From the NCBI GenBank assembly GCA_963795855.1, contig CAWCIZ010000001.1, positions 224,001-288,000 of the forward strand: 64,000 nucleotides of DNA, read 5' to 3'. Of this stretch, positions 14,511 through 34,410 are shown piece by piece; position 1 is the first letter of the stretch; each line of letters begins with the position of its first letter. Position numbers and translations under genes: made by a program. Under the pieces are notes generated by a model. The model searched no databases and was not told the DNA's origin. It saw only the letters and a program-made list of their open reading frames with translations. This DNA is from Vulcanimicrobiota bacterium (lineage in GTDB: Bacteria; Vulcanimicrobiota; Vulcanimicrobiia; Vulcanimicrobiales; Vulcanimicrobiaceae).

Positions 14511-14514
14511 GGCT

Positions 14515-14547
14515 TGCAAAATTATGCAGCATATGCATAAATATACA
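14515..14547. promoter_or_regulatory. Tandem ARG boxes (ArgR operator) between divergent argB and argF
   Basis: TGCAAAATTATGCA (14515-14528) and TGCATAAATATACA (14534-14547) resemble the TGMATA-w-ATKCA palindrome. Confidence 0.75.
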
Positions 14548-14550
14548 GCA

Positions 14551-15548
14551 ATGTACCTGTAGCGCCAGCCGCATCCGAAAAAATCGGCGCCGGCTCCTTA
14601 GCCGGACGGCATCTGCTCGCCGTCGACGACCTTGCGCCGTGCGAGGTCGCCGCGCTGTTACGCTTTGGCGGAGTATCTGAAACGCCGTCGAGCCGAGCGA
14701 GCACGCGCAGATATTCGCAAGGCAAAACGCTGGCGATGTTCTTCGAAAAACCGAGCCTGCGCACGCGCGTTTCCTTCGAAGTCGCGATGACGCAGCTCGG
14801 CGGTCAACGTCTGTTCGCCAAGGGCGACGAATTTTCGATCGGAACGCGTGAAACGCCGGAAGATGCCGCGCGCGTGCTCTCGCGCTATGCGGATGCGATC
14901 GTCATACGCACGCACGCTCACGAACCGCTGCAGCGCTTCGCCGCGGCCTCGAGCGTACCCGTAATAAACGGCCTTTCCGCGCTAGCGCATCCGTGCCAAG
15001 CGCTTGCGGATTTGCTGACGCTCAAAGAGCGCTTCGGTCAGCTTGGCCGGACTGCGCGTCGCATATTTTGGGCGACGCGAAAAACAACGTCGCCGCGTCG
15101 CTCGCGCAAGCCGCGGTCATGTCCGGCGTGCACGTGCAGTTCGGCTCTCCTCCGTCGCATCGTCCGCAGCGAAACGTTTCTCGCGCAGCTCAAGAAACTC
15201 GGAAGGCGAGCGGCGGAAGCTGCGCGCGCGTTTTCGAATGCCGTGCGTGCGGTGCGCGGCGTCGATGCAATCTACACGGACGTCTGGACGTCGATGGGTG
15301 AAGAAGCGGCAAGCGAACGCAATCGCGCGGTGCTCGCGCCGTACCGCGTCAGCGAAGCGTTGTTGCGCCACGCCGCGCCGCACGCGGTGTTCATGCACTG
15401 CCTGCCCGCGCATCGCGGCGAAGAAGTGACCGCGGGCGTGATCGACGGATGCGCAAAGCGTCGTCTTCGATCAGGCCGAAAACCGCATGCACGCACAAAA
15501 AGCGATGCTGGCCGCACTCTGACGGACTTGAAAGGATTTCCAGTATGA
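14551..15548 (+). CDS. argF: Ornithine carbamoyltransferase (frameshifted)
   Basis: FEKPSLRT, HPCQALAD, YTDVWTSMG, MHCLPAHRG and FDQAENR motifs. Confidence 0.93.
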
Positions 15549-15555
15549 TCGCTTT

Positions 15556-15743
15556 GCAATTCAAAGATACCGCCTACGCAGCCAAGTGCAGGCGCCGCTA
15601 CGTCGCGACCGCTCGGCCGGAGCGCCGTATGCGCTCTTTGCAAGCAAAGAATTGCTGCGTCGTAACGCAGCAATTCGATACCGCCTACGCAGCCAAATGG
15701 GGGCCCCGCTACGCGGGGGGCGCGGCGGCTCGGCCGGAGCGCC
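15556..15743. repeat. Two imperfect ~70-bp direct repeats with hairpins in the spacer (REP/BIME-like)
   Basis: GATACCGCCTACGCAGCCAA at 15566 and 15677; GCTCGGCCGGAGCGCC at 15611 and 15728; hairpin GAATTGCTGCGT-cgta-ACGCAGCAATTC at 15649-15676. Confidence 0.8.
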
Positions 15744-15750
15744 TTTTCAA

Positions 15751-16213
15751 ATGAAAGAGCGACGACAGCGAGCCATTCTCACCCTCGTTTCGACGCGACC
15801 CGTGCGATCGCAGGACGAACTTGCGGAGTTGCTGGAGGCGCAAGGGTTCGAAACCACGCAGGCGACGATCTCGCGCGATATCAAGGAGCTGGGATTGGTG
15901 AAGGTGCCGATGAAAGACGGCAGCGCGCATCAGTTCAAGTACGTGCTGCCCACCGCGGAAACGCGTCGTTCCAGCCGCCTGCACCGTCTGGTTTCCGAAC
16001 TGGTCGGATCCATCAAGAGCAGCGACAATCTGATCGTGCTGCGCACGCCGCCCGGCAGCGCGATGATGGTCGCTGCCGCAATCGACGAGGCGCAGTGGCC
16101 GGAGATCATCGGCACCATCGGCGGCGACGATACGATTCTCGTCATCGTCGAACGATCCCAAGAGCACGCCAATCATCGTGCAACGCTTTACCGATTTGAA
16201 AGAGAGTTCGTGA
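15751..16213 (+). CDS. argR: Arginine repressor (frameshift near the 3' end)
   Basis: SQDEL, TQATISRDIKELG and IIGTIGGDDT motifs. Confidence 0.93.
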
Positions 16214-17419
16214 ACAGCAAGACCATCGTTCTAGCCTACTCCGGCGGCTTCGACACCTCCGTACTGCTCAAACGCTTTATTTTGGAAGGGCACGACGTTA
16301 TCGCGCTGACCGCCGACTTGGGCGAAAGCGATGCGATTGCGGGCAGCGGCGCGGCGCAAGCGCTGCAAGGCGTGAAGGCAAAAAGCGATCGCGCTCGGCG
16401 CGCGAGACGCGGTGCTCGTCGACGCGAAGCAGCGTTTCATCGAAGACTTTGCTTATCGCGCGCTGCACGCGAACGCTCTGTATCAAGGCGTGTATCCGCT
16501 TTCGGCAGCGCTCTCGCGCCCGCTGATCGCGCATCTGCTCGTCGAAACCGCGCATGCGTACGGTGCCGGTGCGGTTGCGCACGGGTGCACCGGAAAAGGC
16601 AACGACCAAGTGCGCATCGAGCTCGGCGTGCGCGCGCTCGACCCGCAGCTCGAGTGCCGTGCGCCGCTGCGCGAGAAACCGCTCTCGCGCCCGGACGCAA
16701 TCGCGTTCGCAAAGCGAGACGGCGTGCCGGTTGCGCACACCGCCGAGAAGCCGTACTCCATCGACGCGAATCTCTGGGGTCGGTCGATCGAAGCCGGCGT
16801 GCTTGAAGATCCCTGGAACGCGCCGCCGGAAGATGCGTACGCGTGGACGGCGTCGCCGCGAAGATCGTCCCGTCGACAGCCGGACGAAGTCACGATCGAG
16901 TTCTGCGGCGGTCTGCCCGCATGGAACGGCGCGACGGGCTGGCAGTTGATCGCGCAGTTGAACGCGATCGCCGGAAAACACGGCGTGGGCCGCATCGATC
17001 TGGTGGAAGATCGCGTCGTCGGTTTGAAGTCGCGCGAAGTCTACGAATGTCCCGGGCATCCGTTTTGCTCGTGACGGCGCGAAAGGCGCTGGAACGCGTC
17101 GTGCTCACGCGTGACGAGTTGCGCTTCAAATCGCAGCTGCGATCAGAAGTATGCGGAATTGGTGTACGACGGCCTGTGGATGTCGCCGCTGCGCGACGCT
17201 CTGGATGCATTCAATGCCAGCAGCGCGCAGCGCATGAGCGGCAAGGTTCGCGTGCGCTTGCATCAGGGCGCCGCAACCGTCACCGGCGTGCAATCGCCGT
17301 TCGGGCTGTATTCCGAGGCGCTCGCCACATACGGCAAAGACGATGCATTCGATCATCAGGCGGCGGAGGGATTCATCAAATTGCACGGTTTGCCGCTCGA
17401 GATGGTCGCGCGCACGTGA
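16210..17419 (+). CDS. argG: Argininosuccinate synthase (frameshifted)
   Basis: LAYSGGFDTS, HGCTGKGNDQVR, YSIDANLWG and KSREVYE motifs. Confidence 0.95.
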
Positions 17420-18773
17420 CGAATTCGCTGCAGTGGGGCGGCCGCTTCAGCGCGCCGCCGGATCCGGTGCTGCTGCGGTTCGGATCCTCGCTGGAAGAAG
17501 ACCTCGTGCTCGCACCGTTCGACGTGCAGTGTTCCAAAGCGCACGTTGCGGCTCTGGAAGCGGGCGGCGTTCATCGCATCATCGCGCGCGAGCGAGTTGC
17601 GCGCTGCGCTCTGGAAGCGGTCGCATCCGAAATCGCGCAAGGGACTTCGAGCGGATCGCGCGTGCGAGCGGTGCGGAAGATATTCACGGCGCGATCGACG
17701 CGCGCGTGCGCGAACTCGCGCCGGAAGCCGGCGAACTGCTGCACGCGGGCCGCAGCCGCAACGATCAAGTCGCAACGACGCTGCTGCTGTATTGCGCGGA
17801 TCGCGCCGCGAGGGCGCAACGCAGTAACGGCCGGAATCGCATCGGCGCTGTGCGCATCCGCGGAAGACGAACTGCAAGCGGGCACGTCTGCTCGCAGCGA
17901 CGACGCATTGGCAGCCGGCACAACCCGTGCTGCTCGCCTTCTGGCTGTGCGCCGCCGCGGAACCATTTCTGCGAGATGCGCAGCGCTTTGCCGGCGTGCG
18001 GGCGCAATCGCTCGCGCGCATGTCCGCTGGGCTCCGCCGCGCTGGCCGGATCCTCGCTCCCGTTCGATCGGCGAGATCGCTGCAAACGCGCTCGGCTTCG
18101 CTGCGCCGTCGCGCAATGCTTTGGACGCGGTCGGCAACCGCGACGCGGCACTGGATCTCGCGCACGCGTGCGTTCGCGCGCTCGTTACGGCTTCGCGGCT
18201 TTGTGAAGAGATCGTGATCTGGAACACGCCGAACTTCGGGTACGTAACGCTGGGAGACGAAGCGGGCACCGGTTCGAGTTTGATGCCGCAAAAACGCAAC
18301 CCCGATCCGTTCGAATTGGTGCGTGCAACTTCGGCCGCGATGATCGGCCGATTTGCGGGTGCGCTCGCGACCGTGAACGGAATGGCGCTCTCGTATCACC
18401 GCGACCTGCAAGTCACCAAAAGCGCTGCAATCGAAATCGTCGAGGCGTGCTTGGCTTCGCTGGAAGCGTTCGCGCGCGCGCTCGAGCACTTGCAGTTCAA
18501 TCGCGGCCGGATGACCGCGCTCGCCGGCGAGGCGTTCACGGTGGCGACCGACGTTGCGGATCGACTGATCTGCAAACGGCGCGACCGCACGCGAAGCGCA
18601 TGCCGAAGTCGGGGCTGCCATACTGAAAAGCGAGCGCGAAAACACGCTGCTGGAGTGGCCTGACGCTCACGCGTCGGTCGAAGGAAAGGAGACTGCGGGT
18701 TCGACGCGTCCCGACTGCGGTGCGCGAGTCGCTGAGTGCCCTGCAGGCGGACGTCGAGGCGCTGCTTCGCTGA
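17416..18773 (+). CDS. argH: Argininosuccinate lyase (frameshifted)
   Basis: WGGRF, HAGRSRNDQ, GSSLMPQKRNPD and YHRDLQ motifs. Confidence 0.93.
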
Positions 18774-18786
18774 TGCCGGCGCCGGC

Positions 18787-19623
18787 TTACTGTTTGACGA
18801 ACAGCGCGTCCTTACACGTCAAACAGTTGCGCCCGAAGAAATCCGCGTAGTACGTGTCCACCAGCACCGTATCGCCGGTCGCGTCGACGAAAGCTTGAAT
18901 ATCCGTGCTTTTACGCTTGCTGTCTTCCACGATGACGTAGTCGCCGGGTTGCAGCAAAGGAGCAAGGTGGCGCAGCACGCCTTCCACGTTGACGTGCGCA
19001 TCTTCGATCACGAACCATGGGTGCGGTAAAGCTTCCAGCATGCTTGCGGGCAGATCGCAGTCGATCGTTTCACAGTCGCCTCGAACGAAGGTGATTCGCG
19101 CATCGTCGACTTGCGGCCGTTCCTTGTCGAAGGAGACGATCGACGGCGAAGGTTGAAAAGCCGACAGCACGTCGCAGAGCCATAAGGCGCTACCGCCCGC
19201 GCCGGCGCCGATTTCGATGACCGTGCGCGGCTTACGCTCCCACAGCATCATCGGATAGACGGCGATCTCGAAAACGCTCTTGAACAACGGAATGCCTCGC
19301 CAATTGGTGCAGTGCCGCACGCCTTGAAGCGAAGCAGATTGCAATCCGGCGATCTCCCAAGGGCGTCGAACGTAGTTTTGCGATTCGGCAGCGCGCTGCG
19401 CGTAGCGCACGTATCGCGGATGCTCCCGCGCAAGCTCGTAATATGCAGCCACGAGGGCGCTCTCGCACCACTCGGCGCCGGAGTCGTTGCTCCGAAGTGC
19501 CTCCAGCAGGCTGAGAACCATCTTATCAAAGCCCGCGTTCGTGCCGTGCTGCGCGCGCAGCGCCTTGTCCGTCACGATGCGCTCGAGATCGACGAGCATT
19601 TGAGGCGGCAGCGTGCCCATCAA
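18787..19623 (-). CDS. CmcI (cephalosporin hydroxylase) family SAM-dependent methyltransferase with N-terminal extension
   Basis: WRGIPLFK, KPRTVIEIGAGAGGSALW, VIEDAH and YVIVED motifs. Confidence 0.85.
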   Translation of the reverse strand: MMGTLPPQMLVDLERIVTDKALRAQHGTNAGFDKMVLSLLEALRSNDSGAEWCESALVAAYYELAREHPRYVRYAQRAAESQNYVRRPWEIAGLQSASLQGVRHCTNWRGIPLFKSVFEIAVYPMMLWERKPRTVIEIGAGAGGSALWLCDVLSAFQPSPSIVSFDKERPQVDDARITFVRGDCETIDCDLPASMLEALPHPWFVIEDAHVNVEGVLRHLAPLLQPGDYVIVEDSKRKSTDIQAFVDATGDTVLVDTYYADFFGRNCLTCKDALFVKQ

Positions 19624-21044
19624 GACGTCCCGTTCAAGCGGCTATCGCAAGGGGCTGGCGCTCCGCATGGTTCTTTCGCTCGCCCTTTCACTTTATGATT
19701 CGGAATCGATACGATATGAGGTGCTGCGGGGGCTGGCTTCACCCTTTCACTGATGTTCTCGTATCGCAGCTTATTGAGCGGAATCGCGTAGACCGTTGTG
19801 CTTCCTGCTACGAATACCGTGTCTCCGACGACGACAGGCGGCGAGGTCGTAAATGGCTCCGCGAAGTCTAGACTCCTAATCATCTTACCTGTTCGCGCAT
19901 TTAACGAGTATAGGATTCCCGACGTGTCTCCCGCGATCAGCATCCCCCCTGCAATCACCGGGCTCATCTTTATCGGCGCAAGGGAGGTGAATGACCACCG
20001 AATTTTACCGGTGCGGGCGTCAAACGCCATAAGACGATCGTGCGTGCAAATCGGCTGATAGTAGGTCCCGTCCGCATACGTGCCTGCAATCGATCCCTCA
20101 TCCGATCCAACCGATGAATACATGCCTCGGTTTGGCGTGTGGTAAATCCATCTGAGCCTACCGCTATGGGCATCCAAGGCCGTGACGTCGGCAACGGTAT
20201 AATGCGTAATGGGTGACGTACCTGGCGCAAACCGGCTGCTACTGCAGAATACGGCTCCGTCGCCGTATGTTGGTGAACAATCCCAGTTCCCGTATGGCGC
20301 TCTCCAAATGATTCGTCCGGTTCGGGAATCCAATGCGTCCGTCTGGCACGCTTTGTCGGGCAACCTGTCGACACAGGTTGAGACGAAGATGGTGCTTCCG
20401 AGGAAATTCGCTGATGCCATTGCCGCGGGGCCTCCGAGCGTGCGCACCCAGCGCAGGCGGCCGGATTTCGCATCAATCCCGTAAGCGTGGCTGTCCCCAT
20501 TAGCAAATATGAGCGTATCGTTAACGAGCGCGGCGGACGGCATGTCCTCGCCGACCGTTTTGAACGACCAGACCTGCTTTCCGGTTTGCGCGTCGAACGC
20601 GGTCACTTTGTCGCCCTGCGCTCGGCCTAGCACGTCATAAGTTGTGAATGGCAATTGGACAGTGCCGGGGTCCGTGAGCGTACCATGCATACCGGAACCG
20701 ACGTAAACAAGCCCGTGGCCGACGACGGGCGTCGTCATGACGATATTGTCGGTATGGGCACGCCAGATAGGTCTTCCCGTCCTGACGTCCAGCGCTATCA
20801 CGTCTTTACCGAACGAGTCGACGTATAGCACGTCGTTCAAAATCGCTAAGCTGCCGTTGATCTTGCCTTCGGCCGTAAATTTCCAATGCGTGCGAAAGCC
20901 ATGCCGCGGAAACACCGCGTTGTGGCTGGGCGCATATTGGTACATCGGCCAAGACGCCGAAGAAAGCACATTAGCGTGACCGGTGTGGCAAGCCGCGAGA
21001 AACACGCACACTGGTAGCAATTTGTGAACCATACGAACTCTCAT
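19620..21044 (-). CDS. PQQ-like beta-propeller repeat lipoprotein
   Basis: FLAAC lipobox, WPMY motif and repeated ALDxxTGxxxW blades. Confidence 0.85.
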   Translation of the reverse strand: MRVRMVHKLLPVCVFLAACHTGHANVLSSASWPMYQYAPSHNAVFPRHGFRTHWKFTAEGKINGSLAILNDVLYVDSFGKDVIALDVRTGRPIWRAHTDNIVMTTPVVGHGLVYVGSGMHGTLTDPGTVQLPFTTYDVLGRAQGDKVTAFDAQTGKQVWSFKTVGEDMPSAALVNDTLIFANGDSHAYGIDAKSGRLRWVRTLGGPAAMASANFLGSTIFVSTCVDRLPDKACQTDALDSRTGRIIWRAPYGNWDCSPTYGDGAVFCSSSRFAPGTSPITHYTVADVTALDAHSGRLRWIYHTPNRGMYSSVGSDEGSIAGTYADGTYYQPICTHDRLMAFDARTGKIRWSFTSLAPIKMSPVIAGGMLIAGDTSGILYSLNARTGKMIRSLDFAEPFTTSPPVVVGDTVFVAGSTTVYAIPLNKLRYENISERVKPAPAAPHIVSIPNHKVKGRAKEPCGAPAPCDSRLNGTS

Positions 21045-22593
21045 TTTTTCGCCACTACCCATTGCATGAGTACCTCGCGGTCACGGCGTCCGCCGGTTAT
21101 CGTGAATGGAACCTTGCTGACGCAACATCCAAGTGCGCGCTCATACCGGCCCTTATCTACGGGGAAGCCAAGTAAATACACGCTTCCAAAATGGCGTAAA
21201 ATCGCTGGTGACGGTGGAGAAGACACCAAGTCCATATGCGCGCGAGGATTCAGATAAAAGAGCTACGTCGAGCGCATCGGCCCACGTTACCGGCATCACG
21301 AGCACCGGGTCATCCGCGGCGTTCACGCGAGCTGCGACGGGCTTGACCCAGCCGTTGAAGTCGTTGTCCCACCAGACGCCGGACCGTGCGTCGACGAACG
21401 AGGAGGCCGCACACAGGAGCATCAACGCGATTGCCGCGCATGCCCATGCATTGCGTGTCGCCGATCGCCTGCATCGGATACGAGAAGCCAAGAATCCTGC
21501 AACGCACACGACTAACGTCACCCACAACGGCATGCCATAACGTGTCACGCTGGAGCGGTGTGCATGAAACATGGCGTCAGTCCCAACCAAGGAAACAATC
21601 GGAACGAGCACGAGCGCCGCGGTGATGATACGCGTTCGTGGTGTGGCGCGCAAAAAATTCCAAACCAATGCGCTCAGCCCAATCGCTGCCACCGGAATAA
21701 GCACCAACCACGCACGGCGATGAACGTACTCGAGGTCAAAGAACGCAGAGCCGGCATTGAACGCCCAGGACGTTGCGAGCACCGAAAGCGACAACGAGCC
21801 CGCGCTCCACCGATTCAGAAAAAGAATTTCGCGCAGGTGTTCCGTCATTATCAAGAGCCACGGCACAAAGCCAATGGATGCAATAGCCAGACTAAGAAAA
21901 AATCTGCGCAGGCGTCTTCCGCGTAGCAGCGCAACGGCGTAGATGCTGTGAGCGAACAGCGTAACTGCAAATAGAGTATCCGTATAAAGGCCGAGCATCG
22001 CCATCGTGCAGTACGCCGCCCACCATCCCGTCGAGCTGGATCGACTGGCTCGTAAAAGGAGCGCCGTGCAAAGTGCGAAGATCAGCGACCACAGAGTGTA
22101 TTCGCGAGCCTGCTGCGAATGTATCAAGAGGACTGGTGACAGTGATGAGAGAGCAAAGCCTGCAGCCGCGGCAAGCCGGTTCCCATATCAGCTCCCAACA
22201 CAGGCCAGCTACCGCGAACGGCACGAGCAGGCCGAACAGTAAAGCAGGGGCGCGCAACTGCGCAATCGACATCCCGGCGACGCGAGTCCACAGCGCTGTC
22301 ATGACATAAAACAGTGGCGGATGCTGCGCGTCCTCGTTGGCTAACGAACGCACCGTATCGACCGCAGATCCGTGTTCGCCTCTACCGGTGAAACGCAGTA
22401 TCTCCGATACGCTTCGCGGTTTGCCAACTGCGTTGGCGGCGACGAACGCGCGAGCGGTGTGGCCGGACACCCGCAGAGCAGTCACGGCTTCATCGCTCCA
22501 GAACAGTCGCGTCGGTTCGCCGGTAAAGCGCAATGCCAGTCCTAATAAACCCGCAAGCACGAGCAGCGCGATGAGCTCGAAGGCGCGAGGCAT
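21041..22593 (-). CDS. GT39/PMT-like membrane glycosyltransferase (frameshifts near 22180 and 21235)
   Basis: FWSDEA, DAQHPPLFY and SQQAREY motifs; many TM helices; GGAGG RBS. Confidence 0.8.
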
Positions 22594-23068
22594 CGCACCC
22601 GTTTTCCTCCGCGGGACCACAGTGCGGAACTCCCAGAGTGCCGGCGTGCGCTGGGCAACGCGGAATATATTCATTCTTCTGTAGTATAGGTTGCGCAGTA
22701 GTGACACTAACCGTCCCACCGCTCTCACAGAGCGATGGTGCTTATGGAGCCGTGGAAACCGGTCGCCATGGCTTACGATTCTGTGCTCATTCCGTAGGGC
22801 CGCCCGCCTGTCCGCGTGCGGGACGAATTACCCACCTTACGATCGGCAAATCGTGATCGACAAAGCCGCGCTATAGCGATCCGTTTGTTGGCGGCCGGCG
22901 ACGCTGCCGCTTTTCCATCCGAACTCGATCATGGCGCGGCTGGGGCGCAGGGCAACATCAGGAACAGTCGCTCCGGGGCGCGCATTGGACCCATGAAGCC
23001 CTAGTCATGATGCACCACGCCGCCTGCATCCGTGCGGGCGTTTCGCCCAGGAAGCCGCGGCTGATACG

Positions 23069-24337
23069 GTGAGTGCAAGGATCTATTTGCACATGTGGGA
23101 CACCAGCCGGCGCGAGGTGATGGATTGGCTTTTGCAGCCGTTCTCCATTGAAGCCTTCGCGTCCGAGTATTACGAGCGGCGTCCGCTCTATGTCGAGCGC
23201 AGCGATGCCGGTTATTACGACGGCCACGCGAGCCTTACGGACGTGGAAGCGTTGCTCTTCGGCGTCGAGCTCGAAAAGGGCGATTTACGCATAACGAAGG
23301 ACGGGGCGGACGTTCGGCCCGAGGAGTGGCTGCACGTCCTCGAGTCCTATAACAACGTCACAAAAAAAATTACCACGCGCGAGATCGTCGACCCGCACAA
23401 AGCCGTACAGTTGTTCGCAAGCGGCTGTACGCTGTTTTTCGAGCGCGCGGGGCGCCATTGTCCGGCGGTTGCCGCGATGCAATATCGGCTCGAATCCTTC
23501 TTCGGCCATGCGATCGATGCGGGAATATTTCTGACACCCGCCGGGGCGCAGGGCTTAGCCGTGCACTACGATTCGATCGATGCCATCGTCTTGCACTGTG
23601 AAGGCCGCAAACGCTGGCGCGTGTACGAGCCCTGCATCGAACTTCCGCTCGACGAGGCTCCGCGCAATCAGAAGGACAAGCCCGGAGCGCTATTGCTCGA
23701 CGTCGAGATGCGGCCCGGCGATATGCTGTACATGCCGCGCGGGACGTTTCACGAGCCGCGCGCAAACGACGCCAGCTATTCCTTGCACGTAACGTACGGT
23801 CTGCGGCCTGTGAAATGGCATCACGTTTTGCGCGAAGCCCTGCAGGATGCCGCTCGCGCGAATCCCCTGCTGCGTGCGAGCGCGTGCGCGCCCACGAGCG
23901 AAGAGTCGATTGCCGCAATCGTCGGGCAGACGTTTGCTCTCGCCAACCTGCGGCGTATCGAGCAGCGCCTGGACGACCGCAATCGTGAAACGATCCGCAA
24001 CCCGGGGAACGGCGTGCTGCAGCAGGCGGTTTCGCTTGACGATTTGACGCCGTCGTCGACGGTGCGCCTCCGCCCCGGCGCGATCTATTCCATAAAATCG
24101 AACGGCAGCGGGTGCGTCCTCACCTGCTCCGGCGTGCGCATACCGTTGCCGGAGCAGGCGCAGACCGCTGTTTCATTCCTGGAGCGCTGCGGCAGCGCTG
24201 CAATCGAAGACCTTCCGCTGGAGCCGTCCCGAGCCGTCGGGATCGTGCGTAAACTCATTGCAGCGGCCGTCCTCGAACAGCCGGGGTTACGCGCGCGCAG
24301 CGTTGAGAACGCGGTCTTCGCCGGAGCGGGTGAATAA
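23069..24337 (+). CDS. JmjC/Cupin_4 (ROX-like) 2OG-Fe(II) oxygenase, paralogue 1
   Basis: GLAVHYD, GRKRWRVY and GDMLYMPRGTFH motifs; C-terminal winged-helix-like domain. Confidence 0.9.
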   Translation: MSARIYLHMWDTSRREVMDWLLQPFSIEAFASEYYERRPLYVERSDAGYYDGHASLTDVEALLFGVELEKGDLRITKDGADVRPEEWLHVLESYNNVTKKITTREIVDPHKAVQLFASGCTLFFERAGRHCPAVAAMQYRLESFFGHAIDAGIFLTPAGAQGLAVHYDSIDAIVLHCEGRKRWRVYEPCIELPLDEAPRNQKDKPGALLLDVEMRPGDMLYMPRGTFHEPRANDASYSLHVTYGLRPVKWHHVLREALQDAARANPLLRASACAPTSEESIAAIVGQTFALANLRRIEQRLDDRNRETIRNPGNGVLQQAVSLDDLTPSSTVRLRPGAIYSIKSNGSGCVLTCSGVRIPLPEQAQTAVSFLERCGSAAIEDLPLEPSRAVGIVRKLIAAAVLEQPGLRARSVENAVFAGAGE

Positions 24338-25529
24338 CGGGCGAAGCCACTCGAAGGCGTGCAATTTGAACCAATCGTCTTCCAGCGCGCGCATCTCGCG
24401 CGAATCACCGCACGCACACCGGGCTGCCGCTTCGCCGAACGTCAAACCCTCAAGGGCGCATCGCAGTAAAAGACCGGGTGACTTCGAGGCGAAGTCGAGC
24501 GAACGCAGTCTGCACGAACCGGTCGAAGAGTTCCGCAAGTTTATCGCGCGGATCGATGCCTGGATACCGGTTTGCAAGGAATCGTTCGACGACGGCGATG
24601 TCGGGAGCGTGCGTCAACAGTGCGATCAGCAAGCGGATCTGCGGATCCGGGATCGACGCCATCGACTGCTTCGCGAAATGCATCTTCGCGCGCGATTTGA
24701 GCGCGCCGGCGAGAGTGTACGCCAAGCCGGCATGTCGCTTGGCGAGGATGGCGACCAATCGCGCACGAGAGACCGGGCTCACGCGATCCAGCGCGGGCAT
24801 CATGATGACGCTGCACGCGTCCCAAAACTCCGCCGTTTCGACGACTTGCGCGGCGGCCTCTTCGAAGAGCGCCGGATCGACTTTTGCGACGCTGCTCAGC
24901 AGCGCGAGTTTGGTTCGAAGCGGTTCGGGCTCGTAGGAAAAATCGTACGCAAGCCCCGGCCCGAGAAAGCTGTAGCGCTCGGTTTGAACCTCTTTCCTCG
25001 ACCGCACCAGCACGCTGATGGACGGCGATTCCAAGTGGAGAAGCGCATGGATGAAGCCGTTGCCGGCTGCGATCGCACGGATGCAGCCTTCCGAGAGATA
25101 CTCGGCGCTCTTAAAGCGGAGATCGCCCAAAGCCAGACGTTCGGTGATTTGCTCCGAGCGGTCAAACGAATATTGACAGTGGAAACTCGACCCTCTGAGC
25201 ACGCCCCACGCGCCCGCGAACGTATGCGAGTGTATCGACGTCGGCGCGTTGATCCAAAACAGCAGTTGCACGATCACGCTCTCGCCGATGAAGACGCAGA
25301 CGGGCGGGTCCGCGACCTTCGAAAGGGGAGGTCCGTTTTGCTGCGCCATTTCCCACGTGAGGATGTCCTCCAGGAGCACGGATCGCCAGCCGTCGTCGCG
25401 CTCGAGCGCCGCCGCTGCCAATTCGGGAAGTGCAGCAGGATCGCACTGCGTTGCTTGCCAGCGCCGGTCGACCGATTCCCCAATGCGGCGAAGACAATCG
25501 ATCTTTGCCGCAGCGGCCGTTGCGCTCAC
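24287..25529 (-). CDS. Uncharacterised cupin-fold protein with an HxH...H triad (cysteine-dioxygenase-like); probable frameshift near 24500
   Basis: TSIHSHTFAGAW ... FIHALLH ... SISVLVR; starts 8 nt after the JmjC-2 stop; ends at 24450 as read, or 24287 if the frameshift is corrected. Confidence 0.7.
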
Positions 25530-25536
25530 ACGAAGT

Positions 25537-26771
25537 CTATGCTACGGCGGTTTGCGCCGCCGGCTCGGTAGCGCTGGAGAGTTGAATCGCAAAACCGTCT
25601 TGGATGAGTTTGCGCACGACCTTCAACGCTTTTTCGTCGTGCTTGAGCAGATCGCCCGCGCGCACGCTGGTGCGGCTCTGCAATTCGTTGATGATTGCGG
25701 CCGCGTACGGCGCCAGCGTGAGCGTCTTGTTGGAGAACGTCAGTTTGGTGGCGTGCTCCGTCTGCTCGATGCTGCAGAGCATATCCGGCCGCACCGCCAC
25801 GATCGAATCCTCGGAGAGATCCTTTAGCCTTGCGATCTGCCCCAACTGTCCGCTGAGGTCGTTGCGGTAGCGCTCGTTGACGTAGCGGTTCGTCATCGAT
25901 TCCAGCGTCTCGCACAACGTTTGCGGGGAAAGCATTGCAGCGACGGCCTCGGCTATTTGCGCTGCGGTTTCCGGTGAGGCGTTTTTGCGGAGGACGGCAT
26001 CGGCGTGCGCCGATTCCTTGAGTGCCTCGTGCAGCACTTCAATCCAGCGCCTTTGGTGGATTCCCAGGGTAACGTGCAAGGAAAGGTCCTCGTTGGCGCT
26101 GGCCTCGTGCAAGAACCCGCGAGGGATGTACAGCATGTCTCCGGGCTGCATAGCGATGTCGAGCAGCGTTTCTTTTGAGGCGTGTATCTTTTTGTCGTGC
26201 GGCTGCGTCTCGAGCGGCAGTTCGACCGGGCTGTCGTAGACGCGCCAGTGCTTCGAACCGGTAATTTGGATGATCGCCGTGTCGTGCGTATCGTAGTGAA
26301 CGGCAAAGCCCTGGCTGCCGGGCGGCGTCATGTAGATATTGGGCTGGACGTCGCAGCGCCAGAAACGCTCCAGTTTCCGGCACAGCGTTGCGAGGGGGGG
26401 TGCGAACCGGTCCACACGGTCGAAAACGATCGTGCAGCCGTCGGCAAAGAGCGAAGAAACGAGATCGGGCTCGATGATTTCGCCGGGCGAAAGCTCTGAT
26501 CGCGCCGTATCCGGGTCTTTTTTGTGACGTACGTTTCCGGGCGCGCTTCAGTTCCGTCCTTTACCGGCCGCAAGTCTTTGGTGGTGATGACCGAGCCGAA
26601 CAGCACCCGCTCGTACTCGGCCAAACTGAAGTACTCATCGTAAAACCCCGGCACGTTACGCGATACGTGCAAGGGGCGCCGCTCGAAGTAGTCATTTTGA
26701 AACTGCTCGATCGACAGCGATCCTAACAGCCACGCTAATGTCGCGCGATCTTTCGCTTCGGTGCTGGGCAT
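25537..26771 (-). CDS. JmjC/Cupin_4 (ROX-like) 2OG-Fe(II) oxygenase, paralogue 2 (frameshift near 26490)
   Basis: GGAGG RBS; YFERRPLHV, GFAVHYDTHD, GSKHWRVY and GDMLYIPRGFLH motifs. Confidence 0.9.
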
Positions 26772-26908
26772 ACGGGTCGTCCTCCAAAGGTGCACAGAGC
26801 CCGTCTGGGTGGGCTGCAGGGCTTTACCGTGAAGCTACCTCACGTCGTACCACTCGGCAACGTCTAGTTGCATCATGGCAGCCTGCGTCGATGGGCCCCC
26901 GGCAAAAT

Positions 26909-26940
26909 AATTAGGCTCCCCGCTTGCGAGGAGCCCAATT
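26909..26940 (-). terminator. Strong stem-loop downstream of the precursor peptide gene
   Basis: Minus strand AATTGGGCTCCTCGC-aa-GCGGGGAGCCTAATT followed by ATTTT. Confidence 0.75.
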
Positions 26941-26960
26941 CGGGGAGTGAGGCGCCGGAT

Positions 26961-27122
26961 TTAGTGGCTGTCGCCGCTTCCGAACGCACCGTCATTGGTG
27001 ATGTCGCACACGCCGTTCGGATCGGTCGGGCCGTCCGGGCACGAGGACGAGAAGCCGCTGCCATCGCCGTACAGCGCCGGTACGAAATACGAGGTCAGCA
27101 GTTGAGGGGTCTTGTATTCCAT
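26961..27122 (-). CDS. Putative RiPP precursor peptide, 53 aa: MEYKTPQLLTSYFVPALYGDGSGFSSSCPDGPTDPNGVCDITNDGAFGSGDSH
   Basis: Hand-translated; AAAGGAGG RBS 7 nt before the ATG; GC3-rich codons; YxxPxL leader motif; upstream of and co-oriented with the oxygenase genes. Confidence 0.8.
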   Translation of the reverse strand: MEYKTPQLLTSYFVPALYGDGSGFSSSCPDGPTDPNGVCDITNDGAFGSGDSH

Positions 27123-27514
27123 GGGTTAGCCTCCTTTAAAAGTAGCGCCGCTGTCGCTATACAGTGGGCGGTACATACAAAGGTAGCAGCAGCGCTGCAA
27201 GGGCGGAATTTCCGTTGGCATCATTTCTTGCTAAGGAGTGCTGCTCAGGCTTATACGCCATGGTTTTGAACTTCTCACGCCGGTAGTCTGGTCGGCACCG
27301 GGCCGAATGGCGCTCGACACTCTTCGGACGGTTGCTTTTTCTGTCAGCGGGCGAACGGGCTTAATCCGAAGCGCACGAAAACGGAAAAATTTTTGAAGCA
27401 TTACGCTTTGCGCACGCAGGCCCGCGACAAAAGCAGGTGAATTGGTTAGGGCGATCGTGCTTACACGCCGGTCGGGCATCCCTTTTTTGCTTTTTCACCC
27501 AGAGAAAGTCTTGC

Positions 27515-28933
27515 ATGCACACCTCTTCCAAGATTGCCGCGCTTGCGATCGCTGCGTCCGTTCTGGCAGCGTGTTCCGGCGGCGGTGGTTCGCTCACTCC
27601 GCAATCCAATCTCTCTACGGCGCCGGCGGCGCCCGCGTCGGGCGCATCGCGCTTCATCGCAAGCACCGCCGCGGCAACCAACACTCAGGATTTCACCTAC
27701 GACGCGAATCCGCCGACCAAACCGTTCGGCAACGGCGCGCCGGTAACCGCAAATGCTCTACCGCCGCCTTCCGTCTGCGAGCAAGTATACGGGCTTGCAT
27801 GCTATACGCCGTCGGAAATCAAAACCGCGTACGACGTTCCGTCGCAGTTCAATGGGAGCGGCCAAACGATCGTGATCGTGGACGCCTTCGGCAGCCCGAC
27901 GATTCAGAGTGATTTGCACGTTTTTGACACGGTTATGGGTTTACCCGATCCCGCCTTCGACATCCAGTATCCGGGCGGCCAGCCCTCTGCTTTTGACGGC
28001 AGCAATAATCGATCCGGCTGGGCCGGAGAGACCTCGCTCGACGTGGAGTGGGCGCACGCTATTGCACCGGCCGCGACCATCCATCTCGTTATTGCAAAAA
28101 CCAACTCGAGCACCGACATCAGTACCGCGGAAGCGTACGCTATGCAAACGTATCCGGGGAGCGTCATCTCAATGAGCTTCGGCGCCGGCGAGCCGGCGAT
28201 TCCGGGCGGGGCGAACAACTCGCACTTGCAGCACGACGACAAATTCTTCCAGCAGGCGCAGCATCAGAACACCACGCTGATCGCGAGCGCGGGAGACACC
28301 GGAGCGACGAACGGCACGGGCACGCTGACCGCGGAGTTTCCGGCATCGGATCCCTCCGTGTTGTCGGTCGGCGGCACCGACCTGTTCATGAGCGACGCCG
28401 GCGTCTATCAGCAAGAGACGGTGTGGAACGATACCGTTTCGTCGTTGTGTCCGTTCGGCTGTTATTACGGCGCCTTTGGCGTGACGGGCGGCGCGCCCAG
28501 CCGCCTCTTCCGCGCGCCAAGTTATCAGCAGAGCCTCTTTCATCCCGACACGCGCGAGACGGCCGACGTCAGTTACAACGCCGGCGTCTACACCGCGGTC
28601 CTGGTCGCAGAGGGTTTCAACTCGCCGGGTCAGGTCGGATTCTATTTCGTGGGCGGAACGAGCGCCGGCGCACCGCAATGGGCCGGCATCATCGCGCTTG
28701 CGAATCAGGCCGCGGGACATTCGCTTGGATTCGTGAACAAATCCCTGTACCATATTGCGAAAAACGGGCCGTACGCTTCCGCGTTTCACGACGTCACCGT
28801 CGGCAACAACGCGCTGTTCAGCCTTCCGGGAGAAAACGCGGGACCCGGTTACGACATGCCGACCGGTCTCGGATCGCCGAACGTGGCGAACCTGATTACC
28901 GCGTTGACCGCGGACGGAAACTCCGGGAACTAA
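27515..28933 (+). CDS. S53 (sedolisin-like) peptidase, lipoprotein
   Basis: LAAC lipobox; ETSLDVEW, SAGDTG, GGTSAGAP and GYDMPTGLGSP motifs. Confidence 0.92.
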   Translation: MHTSSKIAALAIAASVLAACSGGGGSLTPQSNLSTAPAAPASGASRFIASTAAATNTQDFTYDANPPTKPFGNGAPVTANALPPPSVCEQVYGLACYTPSEIKTAYDVPSQFNGSGQTIVIVDAFGSPTIQSDLHVFDTVMGLPDPAFDIQYPGGQPSAFDGSNNRSGWAGETSLDVEWAHAIAPAATIHLVIAKTNSSTDISTAEAYAMQTYPGSVISMSFGAGEPAIPGGANNSHLQHDDKFFQQAQHQNTTLIASAGDTGATNGTGTLTAEFPASDPSVLSVGGTDLFMSDAGVYQQETVWNDTVSSLCPFGCYYGAFGVTGGAPSRLFRAPSYQQSLFHPDTRETADVSYNAGVYTAVLVAEGFNSPGQVGFYFVGGTSAGAPQWAGIIALANQAAGHSLGFVNKSLYHIAKNGPYASAFHDVTVGNNALFSLPGENAGPGYDMPTGLGSPNVANLITALTADGNSGN

Positions 28934-28956
28934 CCACCGAAAATTCGTTCGAGAAG

Positions 28957-28987
28957 AAGGGCCCGCTGCTGCAGCGGGCTTTTTTTT
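28957..28987 (+). terminator. Intrinsic terminator
   Basis: GGCCCGCTG-ctg-CAGCGGGCT followed by a T7 run. Confidence 0.9.
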
Positions 28988-28991
28988 GCGG

Positions 28992-30630
28992 TTATCGCGG
29001 CGCGAGCGTCCAGTGCGCGACGTTCCACCACACGCCGTCCTGCGAGACGCTTTGCCCGCGCAGCCGGCTGGTGAACGTGTCGACTTCGTTGCGGTTGTAG
29101 ATCAACACGATCGGCAGATCCGCGGAAAGCAGCCGTTCCAGTTTCGCATAGATCGCCTTACGCTGCGCCGGATCGAACGTGCTGCGGCCTGCGCGCAGCA
29201 GCGCGTCGATCTGCGGATCGCAGATGCGCGACTTGTTGTAGCCGTGCGGCGGCACGTTGCCGCACGCGAATTGATCGGTCGTGTCGGGATCGTCTCCGTT
29301 CACGAACGAATACAGCGCGAGGTTGAACTTGCCGCCGTAAACCGGTCCGCCTTCGCTGGCCGGCGCGACGAACTGCGTGATGTTGAATTGCTTGAGCGAC
29401 ACGCGGCGCCGGCCGCGCGTTCGTATTGCGTCACGGAGTTGCCGATAATCGCATCGCCGGGAGTCGCGGCCTGGACGATCATCTGCAGATCGAGCGGGTT
29501 GCCGTCCTTGTGGCGCACGCCGTCCGCGCCGGCGCGCCAGCCCGCGGCATCGAGCAGTTTGCGCGCATCGTGCGCGATCGTACGGAACGTCCGGATATGC
29601 GTGCGGATCGAACGCCCAGAAGAAGAGTCCGCGGCCGGCCTGCGCGCTCGACACTGCGCCGCGATAGGCTTTGGCGACGAGGCTTTTGATGTCGATCGCT
29701 TCCGCGAGCGCGCGACGCACGCGCGGATCCGCCGTCGCGGCATTCTGCGTGTTGAAAATGATCGCGCCGACGCCGGCGACCGGGCTCGCGGTCGTGCGGT
29801 AGCCGGACAACGCCAGCGAGCTGCGGATACTGCGAGTAATCCTGTGTCGTTGAAGTAGCCCTGCACTTCAGCGTCTGAAGCAGGTTCAGCGCCGTCTGCG
29901 CGTCCGGAACGAAGCGGATGGTCAGGCGATCGATCTTCGGTTTGCCGCCGAAGTAGTACGGATTCGCGTGCATGACGACGCGATCGCCGTGCAGCCAGCG
30001 CGTCACGACGTACGGGCCGGAGCCGATCGGCTGCTGATCGAACGCGATGTGATTGAAGTCTGGATACTTCGCGAGCAGATGTTGCGGGAAGAATCGGAAA
30101 GCCTTGCGGCGCGAGCACGAGCGTCAGCAGCGGCGCAAAGGGCTCCTTCAAATGCAGCACCAGCGTGTAGTCGTTGGGCGCCTCGGCTTTCGCGATGCGA
30201 TCGTAGCCGTATCGCGACTGCACGTTGTTCGCCGGATTGTTGATGGCGTCGATGGACCACACGCAATCGCGCGCGGTCAGCGGCGCACCGTCCGCAAAGC
30301 GCACGCCTTTGCGCAGATGGTACGTCATCGTCAGGCCGTCGCGGCTGATGCCGCCGTTCGCGATCGACGGCGCCTGCGTCGCAACGTCGCCGATCGAGGT
30401 TTCCGCGATCGTCGTACTTCACGAGATAACGAAAAGAGCAGAAATCCCCACTCCGTCGAGGACTGTCCGTTTTCCAGCGCGGGATTGAGCGATCGCGGCT
30501 CACGCTGCTGCGCGATTTGCAACGACGTTTGCGTGTGCCGGCGCGCCGATTAGTTTGGGTGCGCGCTGTCAAAAGCGCACAGCGCCGAGCAGCACGCCTG
30601 CGGCAACTCGGGTGCGCGATGCTTCAGCAT
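28992..30630 (-). CDS. Peptide ABC transporter substrate-binding protein (family 5; several frameshifts)
   Basis: YHLRKGVRFADGAPLTARD, GSGPY, DPRVRRAL and ARKLLDAAGW motifs. Confidence 0.88.
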
Positions 30631-31640
30631 GGCACCAGTCGAACGGCAGGTTGGGATCGGCGCTCAACGTGAGCGCATCGGCGCGCACGGCATCACCTTG
30701 GTGCGCGGCGGCCGCGGCAATCATCGCCGCGTTGTCGGTGCAATATTTCGGCGGCGGAACAAACGCGGGCACGCCGTTGCGCGCACTCCATTCGGCGAGC
30801 GCGGCTTGCAGCGCGGAGTTTGCGGCGACGCCGCCGGAAAGCACGACGCAGGTGTACGCGCTGCGTTCGAACGCCGCGTTCGAGACGCTGCATCAGCACG
30901 TCAATCACCGCCGCTTGAAACGATGCGGCGACGTCCGCCTTCTCGGCTTGCGCGCCTTCGGGATTCCAAGTAATAGCGAACCGCCGTTTTCAGGCCGGAA
31001 AACGACATGTCGAGCGAGCCCGGATCCGGGACGATGTCGCGGAAACGCAATCGCCTTTGCGTTGCCGCCTTTGGCGAGTTTGTCGAGTGCGGGCCCGCCG
31101 GGAAAGCCCAAACCGAGTAGACGCGCCGTCTTGTCGTACGCTTCGCCCGCTGCGTCGTCTTTCGTCCGCCCGATGACGCGCATCTGCGTCGCGCTTTCGA
31201 CTTCGACGAGTTGCGAATGTCCGCCGGAGACCAGCAGCGCCAAAAACGGATACTGCGGCGTCTGCTCGCGATCCAGAAACGCCGCAAAAATGTGGCCGTG
31301 CAAATGATTGACGCCGTACAGCGGTTTGTCGATCGCGAACGCGAGCGCTTTCGCCGCCGCGACGCCTACGACCAAACTGCCGATAAGGCCCGGGCCGCGC
31401 GTTACGGCGATGCCGTCGATTCGTCATCGAGTCGTCGTGCCGGCGCGGTCGACCGCGTCCTCCACCGCGGCGGAGAGCAGCGCGACGTGCCGGCGGCTCG
31501 CGATCTCCGGCACGATGCCGCCGTACTTCGCGTGAAACGCGTCTTGGTTCGTCGAGACGCTCGCACGAACGCGCACGGCCGTCCTCAACCACGGCGGTCG
31601 CCGTGTCGTCGCACGAGGTTTCGATCCCGAGCAAAAGCAT
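30569..31640 (-). CDS. tsaD: tRNA N6-threonylcarbamoyltransferase (frameshifted; 3' end uncertain)
   Basis: [40 protein letters not shown] and CTDNAAMIA motifs. Confidence 0.95.
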
Positions 31641-31658
31641 GACGTGTACCTGGCTACG

Positions 31659-32129
31659 TTACGTACTTTCCGGGCCCATCCTCCGTCCAGACGCGCTCGT
31701 GGCCCAGCGCGCGCTGCTCTTCCGCGCCTAGATCGCCAAAAAGCAGCAGCAAGCAGTATCGCTGCAAGGCCCGTGAAGATGCATCGAAGCTCCGACCACG
31801 AGCTCATGGCCGATGCAGCGTCCAGCAGTAAGCGCCAGCGCAAGCAGCACGCGGCCACGGAGACTGTCCTCCTTCGATGAACAGACTGCCGAACGTCTTC
31901 GCCCGGCGACGATTCCGTCTTCGCTGCCGCGTCTTCGTCCGATCGTCGCCGGCGAGATGCGCGCTGCGCTCGAAGATCATTGCATAGCCCGCCGCGAACC
32001 CGAGCGCGCACGCCATGAAGCCGAGCAAACATCGTTCCGGCGTATTCGTGCGAGGCAAACCAGTAGATGATCGCAGATCGCCGCCGCGAAAACAGCCGAG
32101 GACAAGAACAGCCCGACGAACGTTTTCAC
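31659..32129 (-). CDS. Probable cytochrome c oxidase subunit 4 (CtaF-like), heavily frameshifted
   Basis: GTG overlaps the subunit I stop; hydrophobic helices and an SPWP motif; position in the operon. Confidence 0.55.
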
Positions 32130-33737
32130 GGCTTCACATCGTTGTTTGGCAAACTCCGGATGCGTCATGTCCCAGACCGGGCGCTCCGAACGAATCGGCG
32201 GAAGCGCATGAAAATTGAATTCCGGCGGCGGGCACGACGTCGCCCATTCCAGCGAAAACGCTCCGCCCCACGGATCGTCTGCGCAGCGGCTCCGCGCACT
32301 TTCGATTCGATTTTCGAAATCACGACGTTCAGCAGGAACGCGATCACGGAGAGCGCCATGATCCCCGCGCCGACCGACGAGAGCGGCGTTGAGCCACGGC
32401 AGATCGCCCATCGCGGGATAGGTGAAGACGCGGCGCGGCATGCCTTCGATGCCCATGAAGAACCACGGAATGAACGTCACGTTGAAGCCGATGAAGATCA
32501 GCCAGAAGTTCGACTTTGCCGAGCGTCTCGTTCAGTTTGACGCCGAACATCTTCGGCAACCAAAAATACATCGCGGCGAACACGGCGAACAGCGCGCCGC
32601 CGCCGAGCGTGTAGTGGAAGTGCGAGACGAGAAAATACGAATCTTCGACGTGATAGTCGATCGGCGGCGACGCGACCATCACGCCGGTGATTCCGCCGAT
32701 GAGGAAATTGGAAAGAAATCCGATCGCGAAGAGCATCGGCGTCGTGAGACGCAGGTGCCCTTTCCACATCGTTCCGATCCAGTTCCAGTACTTCACGCCG
32801 GTCGGGATCGCGATGAGAAACGACATGCCGGAAAAGAAGCCGTTCGCGACGACCCCGGTCGTGAACATGTGGTGCGCCCACACGCCCATCGAAAGACCCG
32901 CGATCGCGAACGCCGAGAGCACCATGCCGACGTAACCGTAGAGCGGCTTCGGCGAGAAGACCGGCAACGATTTCGGAAATGACGCCAAAGTACGGCAAAA
33001 TCATCACGTAGACTTCCGGATGGCCGAAAAACCAGAAGAAATGCTGGTAGAGGACGACGTTGCCGCCGTACTGCGGATCGAAGAAATGCGCGCCGTAGTG
33101 CCGCTCGAGCAGCAGCTCGGCCATCGACGACGCTCAGCGACGGGAACGCCATGAGGATCAGCAGCGCGGTCGCAAGTATCTCCCACGTGAAGATGGGCAT
33201 GCGCCACATCGTCATGCCGGGCGCGCGATAGAGAAAGATCGTCGCCGTGAAGTTGATCGCGACCATGATCGTCGCGATGGCGTTGAGCATGATGCCGATG
33301 CACCACAGGTCCTGCCCGCCGCCGCTGCCGACGATCATGGTCGATAGCGGCGCGTACGCCGTCCAACCCGCCATCGCGCCGCCGCCTTGCGCGAAGACGC
33401 CGGCGAAAATGGTGAAGCCGCTGATCATGAACAGATACACGCCGAACGCGTTCAGGCGCGGATACGCCATGTCGGGCGCGCCGATTTGCAGCGGCACCAA
33501 ATAGTTGCCGAGACCGAAGGCGAACGGCGCGATGACCAAAAAGATCATCGCCGTTCCGTGGAGCGTGAAAATCTGGTTGTAGGCGTGCGCGCTGAAACGA
33601 TGTTTTGATCGGGCTGCGCGAGTTGCAGGCGGATGACCAGCGAGAGGATTCCCGCGATGATGAAAAACAGAAACGCTCGTCATCATGTACATGATGCCGA
33701 TCGACTTATGATTGGTCGACGTGAGCCAATGCGTCAT
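32126..33737 (-). CDS. ctaD: Cytochrome c oxidase subunit I (A1 type; frameshifted)
   Basis: [35 protein letters not shown] and SHFHY motifs. Confidence 0.95.
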
Positions 33738-33760
33738 AGGGATGCGCGCCCTCCGCGCGG

Positions 33761-34410
33761 CTAGCCAGCGATCGAAATCGCCGCCGGAACGACTTCGACG
33801 GTGAACGTCATCAGCGCGTGATCCAGGCCGCAATATTCCGCGCACACGCCGTGAAAGAGTCCCGTCTGCGTCGGCGTCACGTCGAAGTGATTGGTGATTC
33901 CGGGATTCGCGTCGCGTTTGAAGAGAAAACTCGGGATCCAGAACGAGTGCACGACGTCGTTCGAGTAGAGATTAATTTGCGTCATCTTCCCGAGCGGCAG
34001 CACCAACGTCGGCGGCTCGTGCACGTTGCCGTTCGACCGTCGATGTGGCCGGCGTAGCGGAACTGCCAGGACCAGCGATAGCCCGTCACGTCGACCGTCG
34101 CATACGGGTTCGGTTTGAGGAAATCCACGACGCCTTCGCGGACGTAGGTGATATAGAAAAGCCCGATCACGATGATGAACGGAATGACGACGCCCGTGAT
34201 CTCGATCGGCGGATTTTTCATGAACTGCGGCGGAAGCCCGGTGTCCGTTGGCCGAGCGCGCCAGCTCAACACCGAATAGACGATCAGCCCGTACACGAAA
34301 ACCGCGACGAACAACGCCGCGCCGCCAAAGATATACCAGACGCCTGCGAGGTCCTGCGCCTGTACCGACGCGGGATGCATGATGGGCATGTCGCGAGCTA
34401 CCTTACCCAC
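33761..34410 (-). CDS. ctaC: Cytochrome c oxidase subunit II (frameshifted)
   Basis: GYRWSWQFRY; CuA ligands in DVVHSFW ... CAEYCGLDHALM. Confidence 0.93.

Follow-up and report, generated by a model that had tools for sequence, protein, structure and literature searches.

A short YxxP-leader peptide gene linked to NO66-like oxygenases in a Vulcanimicrobiota genome: a probable RiPP precursor and its putative tailoring module

Results and Discussion

We have analysed a stretch of 64,000 nt (hereafter the window) from a Vulcanimicrobiota bacterium of the Vulcanimicrobiaceae (GenBank assembly GCA_963795855.1, contig CAWCIZ010000001.1, positions 224,001 to 288,000 of the forward strand), focussing on the locus at window positions 23,069 to 27,122, where a short open reading frame (ORF) lies beside genes for two JmjC oxygenases and a cupin. 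The ORF is probably the starting material of an undescribed modified peptide, because it adjoins its own branch of oxygenases in several related genomes. It had been picked out from the sequence as the precursor of a ribosomally produced, post-translationally modified peptide (RiPP), and the gene layout given in that original prediction held throughout. The ORF (26961..27122, minus strand) encodes 53 aa, with a third-position GC of 0.80 and a ribosome-binding site, AAGGAGG (27130..27136, minus strand), 7 nt ahead of its ATG. Judging by conservation, it divides into a 23-aa leader (27122-27054, minus strand; Y3-x2-P6-x-L8-x8-L17-x5-G23) and, in the 3' part of the ORF, a putative core of 30 aa that begins F-S-S and contains two Cys and five Asp. 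A hairpin (26909..26940, minus strand), putatively a terminator or stabiliser, separates it from JmjC-2. The 196-nt spacer has a folding z of -2.63, and a strong hairpin lies 3' of the peptide in ten of eleven loci (equalled by at most 2 of 40 shuffles). A terminator scan of the window did not include this hairpin among its predictions, and a sigma-70 promoter scan of the window gave no match.

JmjC-2, an NO66/MINA53-like Fe/2-oxoglutarate (2OG) oxygenase (25537..26771, minus strand), is followed in the same direction, after only 7 nt, by the gene for a 3-His cupin with a predicted thiol-dioxygenase fold and a helical C-terminal region (24287..25529, minus strand). JmjC-1 (23093..24337, plus strand) converges on both, and its end is overlapped by the 3' end of the cupin gene, the C-terminal part of which extends to 24287. 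The JmjC-2 and cupin genes are each broken by one frameshift (near 26526-26529 and 24510-24514, respectively), a feature absent from the original prediction.

The genome of the window (G000, 3.06 Mb, 86% complete) encodes six members of the peptide family, three of them 5' of a JmjC gene, two in tandem directly 5' of the sole PqqD match, and a sixth with no family enzyme adjoining. The leader is fixed in length (Y-x2-P-x-[LIV]-x8-L-x5-G), its last residues being [AVG]-x-G or, in a few cases, x-A; the YxxPxL motif first proposed is real as a YxxP leader family, but its final L varies among L, I and V. A leader pattern derived from these same six peptides matched six times in G000, always in family members, against two matches in total over ten shuffled genomes, and codon differences were mostly third-position in the four peptide pairs compared (14, 13, 12, and 16 vs. 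3-10). The family thus combines a conserved leader, a variable core and coding constraint, as expected of a RiPP precursor with a leader of the RiPP recognition element (RRE) type, and it is linked to modifying enzymes and to an RRE, which for the window copy is a stand-alone PqqD on another contig. No Pfam or NCBIfam model matched the window peptide, nor did any NCBIfam model match four paralogues; the ESM Atlas gave only leads below 0.9. Literature searches in an open-access library turned up no account of the family (subscription papers and supplements were outside the scope of this search, and supplements may list it). One family member is labelled Ca. Baltobacteraceae, the NCBI equivalent of which is Vulcanimicrobiaceae.

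We then looked at the linkage between peptide and oxygenase across 401 genomes of the phylum. With the intact JmjC paralogue as query, matches were found in 68 genomes, close ones in 8. These eight contain a group of 16 JmjC genes (up to four copies each), for 12 of which a family peptide is encoded upstream in the same orientation, at a distance of 201-386 nt, while the remaining four, JmjC-1 included, share a cluster with a family peptide. One gene and one genome of this set (G260) are unpublished data, and excluding them leaves 11 of 15 genes in 7 genomes. None of 37 distant JmjC genes had a family peptide nearby (best 6.7 bits); these comprised 28 of the 67 other genome matches and 9 of 25 loci from a separate search, and 14 of them were examined with only ca. 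1.5 kb of flank. A profile built from the six G000 peptides alone found a peptide at every close JmjC locus, and a genome-wide peptide search gave a single borderline match, which was set aside, among the 60 genomes whose JmjC genes are all distant. In a tree of 51 rows, which left out the fragmented G000 copy at C2:108953 and one distant fragment, the 15 peptide-locus rows formed a single branch (support 100/98). The search for similar short ORFs near homologous oxygenases that had been put forward as a check was, therefore, positive (16/16 group genes vs. 0/37 distant ones), and it supports a precursor of RiPP type that has an oxygenase group dedicated to it. The arrangement varies, from peptide and JmjC only (G025, G026) to PqqD, peptide, JmjC and kinase in one run (G402).

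The peptides themselves differ with the presence of the oxygenases. The leader Gly is followed by F-x-S in 10/10 JmjC-adjacent peptides that match the pattern, vs. 0/14 from genomes without the JmjC group; these ten are drawn from 11 published JmjC-adjacent peptides, and the eleventh and both G260 peptides are also F-x-S. Kinship could explain this pattern with no link to the enzymes. Asp makes up 40 of 248 core residues in JmjC-adjacent peptides vs. 13 of 227 in genomes without the group, and Asn shows no difference. Some peptides have no modifying gene of the system adjoining (G000:C3:683652-683826; L139 and L140 in G164; L155 and L156 in G039 and G021), and processing in trans is therefore suggested for them. 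Weak profile matches in G048 and G079 were discarded, one lying inside a 355-aa frame and the other lacking the leader pattern. Sulfotransferase-like genes were found in two peptide-JmjC clusters (G000:C2:567385-569288, L030; L067:10215-11174).

Beside other NO66-like branches, unrelated short ORFs rich in Asp or Asn lie upstream or divergently at 6 of the 14 loci inspected, and the sister branch had none. These ORFs (at L083, L085 (G093, G141), L001, L084, L082, and L006) are of low complexity, with Gly-Ala-Asp-Gly-Gly repeats, Asp-Thr-Asp-Asp repeats, Gln/Asn-rich stretches or Asn-Leu-Ala repeats. This suggests that more peptide-JmjC systems may exist there.

Both window JmjC proteins exceed the PF08007 cut-off and, as originally claimed, keep HxD...H and the 2OG-binding Lys (H158/D160/H220/K173 in JmjC-1; H40/D42/H103/K55 in JmjC-2, numbered on its 292-aa ORF), the metal ligands and Lys being invariant in 53/53 rows. 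JmjC-1 departs from near-invariant residues at three positions (N144G, H162I, Q168H) and has a long tree branch; the three departures would fit either another target or decay. Its model (pLDDT 94) predicts the three-part layout of ribosomal oxygenases (ROX), i.e., a JmjC domain, dimerisation helices and a C-terminal winged helix, and the elements of this last domain (residues 323-390, pLDDT >90) are modelled in RRE order, the RRE-fusion topology as defined in PMC12710340. The two proteins are nearer to NO66 and MINA53 than to YcfD (profile E of 2.5e-50, 3e-43, and 3.5e-10, respectively), and the JmjC-1 model superimposes on NO66 with a Foldseek TM of 0.68-0.70. However, identity is only ca. 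23%, and the window-type JmjC proteins are patchy in distribution, multicopy and tied to a peptide gene. These likenesses, including the same three-domain layout, are what one would expect if the enzymes hydroxylated ribosomal or other proteins like YcfD and NO66, with the small ORF regulatory or unrelated, and JGI does label several homologues "ribosomal protein L16 Arg81 hydroxylase". Yet the distribution argues against a ribosomal protein as substrate, since the group is confined to so few genomes, in several copies and always with the peptide; moreover, the leader precedes kinases and PqqD elsewhere, as a JmjC-specific attenuator would not. We regard this explanation as very improbable.

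The peptide family extends well beyond the oxygenases. On contig C2 of G000, inside an exopolysaccharide locus, there is a cassette (G000:C2:119935-126384, L029) with two tandem family peptides and genes for an S24/26 peptidase (C2:120318-119935), an HprK-like kinase, PqqD (C2:121449-121192), an ATP-binding cassette (ABC) exporter, a nucleotidyltransferase and a second kinase, with no cyclase. The same cassette (PqqD-kinase-S24/26-nucleotidyltransferase-ABC) is found in G218, G369, G025, and G026. The opposite end of the exopolysaccharide locus is occupied by a peptide-JmjC module in G000, G218, and G369, within ca. 13-30 kb of the cassette, and because of this placement the copy in the window resembles a duplicate that has been relocated. 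Besides, 12 genomes without any JmjC match contain 14 peptides with the same leader, in ten of them with kinase-like or cassette genes adjoining and in two with none. The neighbours are mostly HprK-like kinase genes, which genes for PqqD, an S24/26 peptidase, a nucleotidyltransferase and an ABC exporter often accompany. PqqD was present in all five tested genomes of this kind, and no cyclase domain was detected in the 30 neighbouring proteins scanned (of 118 called). The oxygenase-defined RiPP class originally put forward is, therefore, not borne out, and since 12 genomes have this leader but no JmjC match, the oxygenases are likelier to be tailoring enzymes than to define the class. The best models for the C2 proteins are those of the HPr-rel-A/SynChlorMet systems (TIGR04352, TIGR04353, TIGR04249), with which they share HprK-related kinases and a PqqD-family chaperone. 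However, their scores are far under the cut-offs (67 vs. 200, 25 vs. 35, and 30 vs. 125), none of these models matches the peptides, and G000 has no SPASM radical SAM protein over cut-off, so that we do not place the cassette among them. In some related cassettes elsewhere the peptidase and the nucleotidyltransferase are apparently fused.

A self-sufficient version of the oxygenase-defined class deserves consideration, in which the JmjC winged helix would be a fused RRE and housekeeping proteases would free the core. The two-gene loci of G025 and G026 and the up to four JmjC paralogues per cluster are in line with it, as are the absence of a PqqD match in G164 (93% complete), which has the peptide-JmjC pair, and the modelled RRE order of the C-terminal domain; fusions of JmjC and RRE domains whose bacterial homologues occur in RiPP-like surroundings have been noted (PMC12710340). 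Nevertheless, the occurrence of the same leader in the genomes without oxygenases, and of the cassette in five genomes, three of them with the module nearby, make this version unlikely in our opinion.

The frameshifts raise another alternative, namely that the window copy is a decaying duplicate and the working copies are elsewhere, for example at C2:563705-566647, where a paralogous peptide (C2:565274-565104) lies with an intact JmjC gene (C2:564949-563705) and an intact cupin gene (C2:566647-565478). Two breaks in adjacent genes and the divergence of JmjC-1 would agree with this. However, assembly error is the likelier cause, because argG, argH, tsaD and coxI in the window are likewise split over frames, and the same holds for 8 of 66 conserved genes in the genome as a whole. 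The peptide, its ribosome-binding site, the hairpin and all metal ligands of the window copy are intact. We hold decay to be distinctly unlikely. The region 14000-34000 of the window is dense in housekeeping-gene frameshifts, typical of an unpolished long-read assembly.

The cupin is a true 3-His cupin, as predicted, with the three His invariant in 125/125 rows. An initial search that gave 5 proteins, and 0 of 40 relatives, had made the family appear rare, which a profile search then overturned: clustering at 50% identity gives 2,046 clusters, for which neither Pfam nor NCBIfam has a model. Scoring four candidates per genome, we found the family in 5 of the 401 genomes, and 4 of these five also have the peptide-JmjC pair; there was no match in four genomes outside the phylum. 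By sequence it has no solved relative, and the ESM Atlas returned only unnamed clusters. The top seven structural matches of the model of an intact homologue are thiol dioxygenases (CDO, MDO, MSDO, plant cysteine oxidase, and ADO; Z 15.3-11.1, rmsd 2.9-3.9 over 142-175 aligned residues), other cupins reaching at most Z 9.2. The cupin differs from these enzymes in its low identity (11-17%), ca. 200 extra helical residues and a fourth conserved His; a conserved Arg stands at what we take to be the place of the CDO Tyr. An RRE within the cupin was considered and rejected, the model of an intact homologue (P0002) being all-helical past residue 200; two homologues have sub-threshold PqqD matches in the helical C-terminal region.

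Some side observations on the cupin family can be added. Fusions to a LanC-like domain (one homologue), an LCM methyltransferase and TPR (P0082) occur among its proteins (P0078, P0079, P0131, P0197, P0199, P0205, and P0216). An unannotated C-terminal region with a His-x-Asp-Arg motif in four proteins is possibly a 2OG oxygenase. Two membrane-protein ORFs, one of which weakly matches DUF5819, come after a cupin homologue at L065:2346-3669, and they presumably resemble SdpA/SdpB-type genes.

The original prediction noted no lasso cyclase or transglutaminase-like peptidase, radical SAM, YcaO or LanM gene in the window; for the lasso B2 peptidase, YcaO and SPASM (no domain over cut-off) this extends to the whole of G000, complete to 86%, but the LanM search, which found no match, was uninformative, as its positive control matched nowhere either. 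The sole full-length Asn-synthase match in G000 is a 639-aa AsnB-type frame outside the window, and there is none in G025 (98% complete), G026 (96%), G164, or G402. No B2 peptidase was found in four of the five other carriers tested, and the one match, in G369, is on another contig. Lasso precursors typically have Thr at position -2 and Asp/Glu at core positions 7-9. Counting the conserved Gly as residue 1, Thr at -2 occurs in 0/10 JmjC-adjacent peptides and Asp/Glu at 7-9 in 3/10, although the window peptide does have Asp at position 8. Paeninodin/pseudomycoidin-type lasso clusters share with the present system the HPr-kinase homologue, nucleotidyltransferase, sulfotransferase and ABC transporter (PMC8498205), and together with the YxxP-type leader and PqqD this could point to a lasso precursor cyclised in trans. 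Here, however, an S24/26 peptidase stands in place of the cyclase and B2 peptidase pair, and with neither Thr at -2 nor a conserved acceptor we reject lasso membership; cyclisation in trans seems extremely improbable.

Closer analogies come from JmjC Fe/2OG enzymes that act on a precursor peptide, as we propose here. The gene czlI of the curacozole cluster adjoins the precursor gene, and CzlI hydroxylates Phe and requires core-flanking sequences (PMC11575548), while BipG and PbsQ of biphenomycin hydroxylate ornithine (PMC12707348, PMC12257519). Those classes are defined by a cyclodehydratase or by MNIO/radical SAM enzymes, whereas the window locus has none of these and the system has up to four JmjC paralogues and a YxxP-type leader. 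Cupin-4 enzymes are also found with NHLP precursors, which have a different leader (PMC9426513).

Taking all this together, we find it fairly probable that the ORF encodes a precursor from an uncharacterised RiPP family that has an RRE-type leader and no cyclase, with the locus as its oxygenase-tailoring module. Such an oxygenase-tailored variant of a cyclase-free RRE/kinase peptide system is apparently undescribed. The gene linkage is strong; the chemistry is inferred. Several points weigh on the other side. The carrier genomes are related and so are not independent; G164, as mentioned, has the pair with no PqqD match; the window locus has no protease or exporter for the peptide; and cores from genomes without the JmjC group can be Asn-rich too (22/227). 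A profile comparison of the JmjC winged helix with the single PqqD of G000 gave a probability of 0.3%, and no PqqD model matched; NO66, MINA53 and YcfD all have the winged helix, the function of which is reported as unclear (PMC6182338). Because all ROX share it and no PqqD similarity was detected, its topology is not proof of leader binding. The cupin stands beside JmjC-2 as described, but its link to the peptide is looser than was claimed, since just three of the ten loci compared (8 genes of the survey plus two metagenome contigs) place it beside a family peptide. Finally, two breaks in the ca. 820 aa of JmjC-2 and the cupin would be somewhat unusual at the genome background of 9 per 21,830 aa.

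If the ORF is such a precursor, its maturation might be as follows. The hairpin would, we think likely, let precursor mRNA exceed enzyme mRNA. It is rather more likely still that JmjC-2 and JmjC-1 hydroxylate core residues using Fe(II), 2OG and O2; there is an even chance that the target is Asp/Asn beta-hydroxylation, and the invariant Phe at +1, with CzlI as precedent, is the next candidate, though a doubtful one. As reader of the leader, the winged helix of the JmjC enzymes and the stand-alone PqqD encoded on C2 are about equally likely candidates. The cupin may oxidise core Cys or another residue, to which we give somewhat less than even weight. Completion of the peptide probably also involves enzymes encoded at other sites in the genome: the C2 S24/26 peptidase might cut after [AVG]-x-G, the ABC exporter secrete the product and the kinases possibly phosphorylate Ser at +3, a set of steps for and against which we see the scales balanced. 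The product would be acidic, hydroxylated, perhaps disulfide-looped, and tied to the exopolysaccharide locus.

The genes surrounding the locus are of less certain relevance. A GT39/PMT-like membrane glycosyltransferase gene in two frames (21153..22728, minus strand) is a possible extra member; it lies beside JmjC-1, is single-copy in G000 and has an orthologue directly 3' of a cupin gene in G218 (L133:15347-16900), and there is a separate, distinct PMT_2 gene near the C2 cupin. The membership of a PQQ-repeat beta-propeller gene (19620..21062, minus strand) is doubtful; a 49% identical homologue is found beside the G218 JmjC cluster, and there are five copies in G000. A CmcI-type methyltransferase (18787-19623), single-copy and the most distant from JmjC-1 in the block to its left, had no homologue at the 21 other loci compared. 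On the other side, a divergent gene for a secreted subtilisin/sedolisin-like protease (27437-28933), with only weak model matches, adjoins the precursor; it has several paralogues in G000 and was not found at the other loci compared.

Concluding Remarks

A more ambitious interpretation, which we advance tentatively and consider doubtful, would make the locus the oxygenase part of a novel class of linear RiPPs in Vulcanimicrobiota. NO66-like enzymes would then read the YxxP leader with the winged helix that they themselves carry and hydroxylate an Asp-rich core at multiple residues, and the cupin family would oxidise the cysteines of that core. If so, peptide recognition would be the task of the ROX winged helix, and many "ribosomal oxygenases" of bacteria would serve in peptide maturation, as is hinted at by the Asp/Asn-rich ORFs at other JmjC branches. 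The system offers a direct test of leader binding by this domain. With the peptides, two groups of orphan enzymes, namely a branch of NO66-like oxygenases in bacteria and the cupin family lacking any model, may gain short, defined substrates. A kinase/PqqD/S24-26 peptide system lacking a cyclase is likewise sketched out here, for a soil phylum that is largely uncultured.

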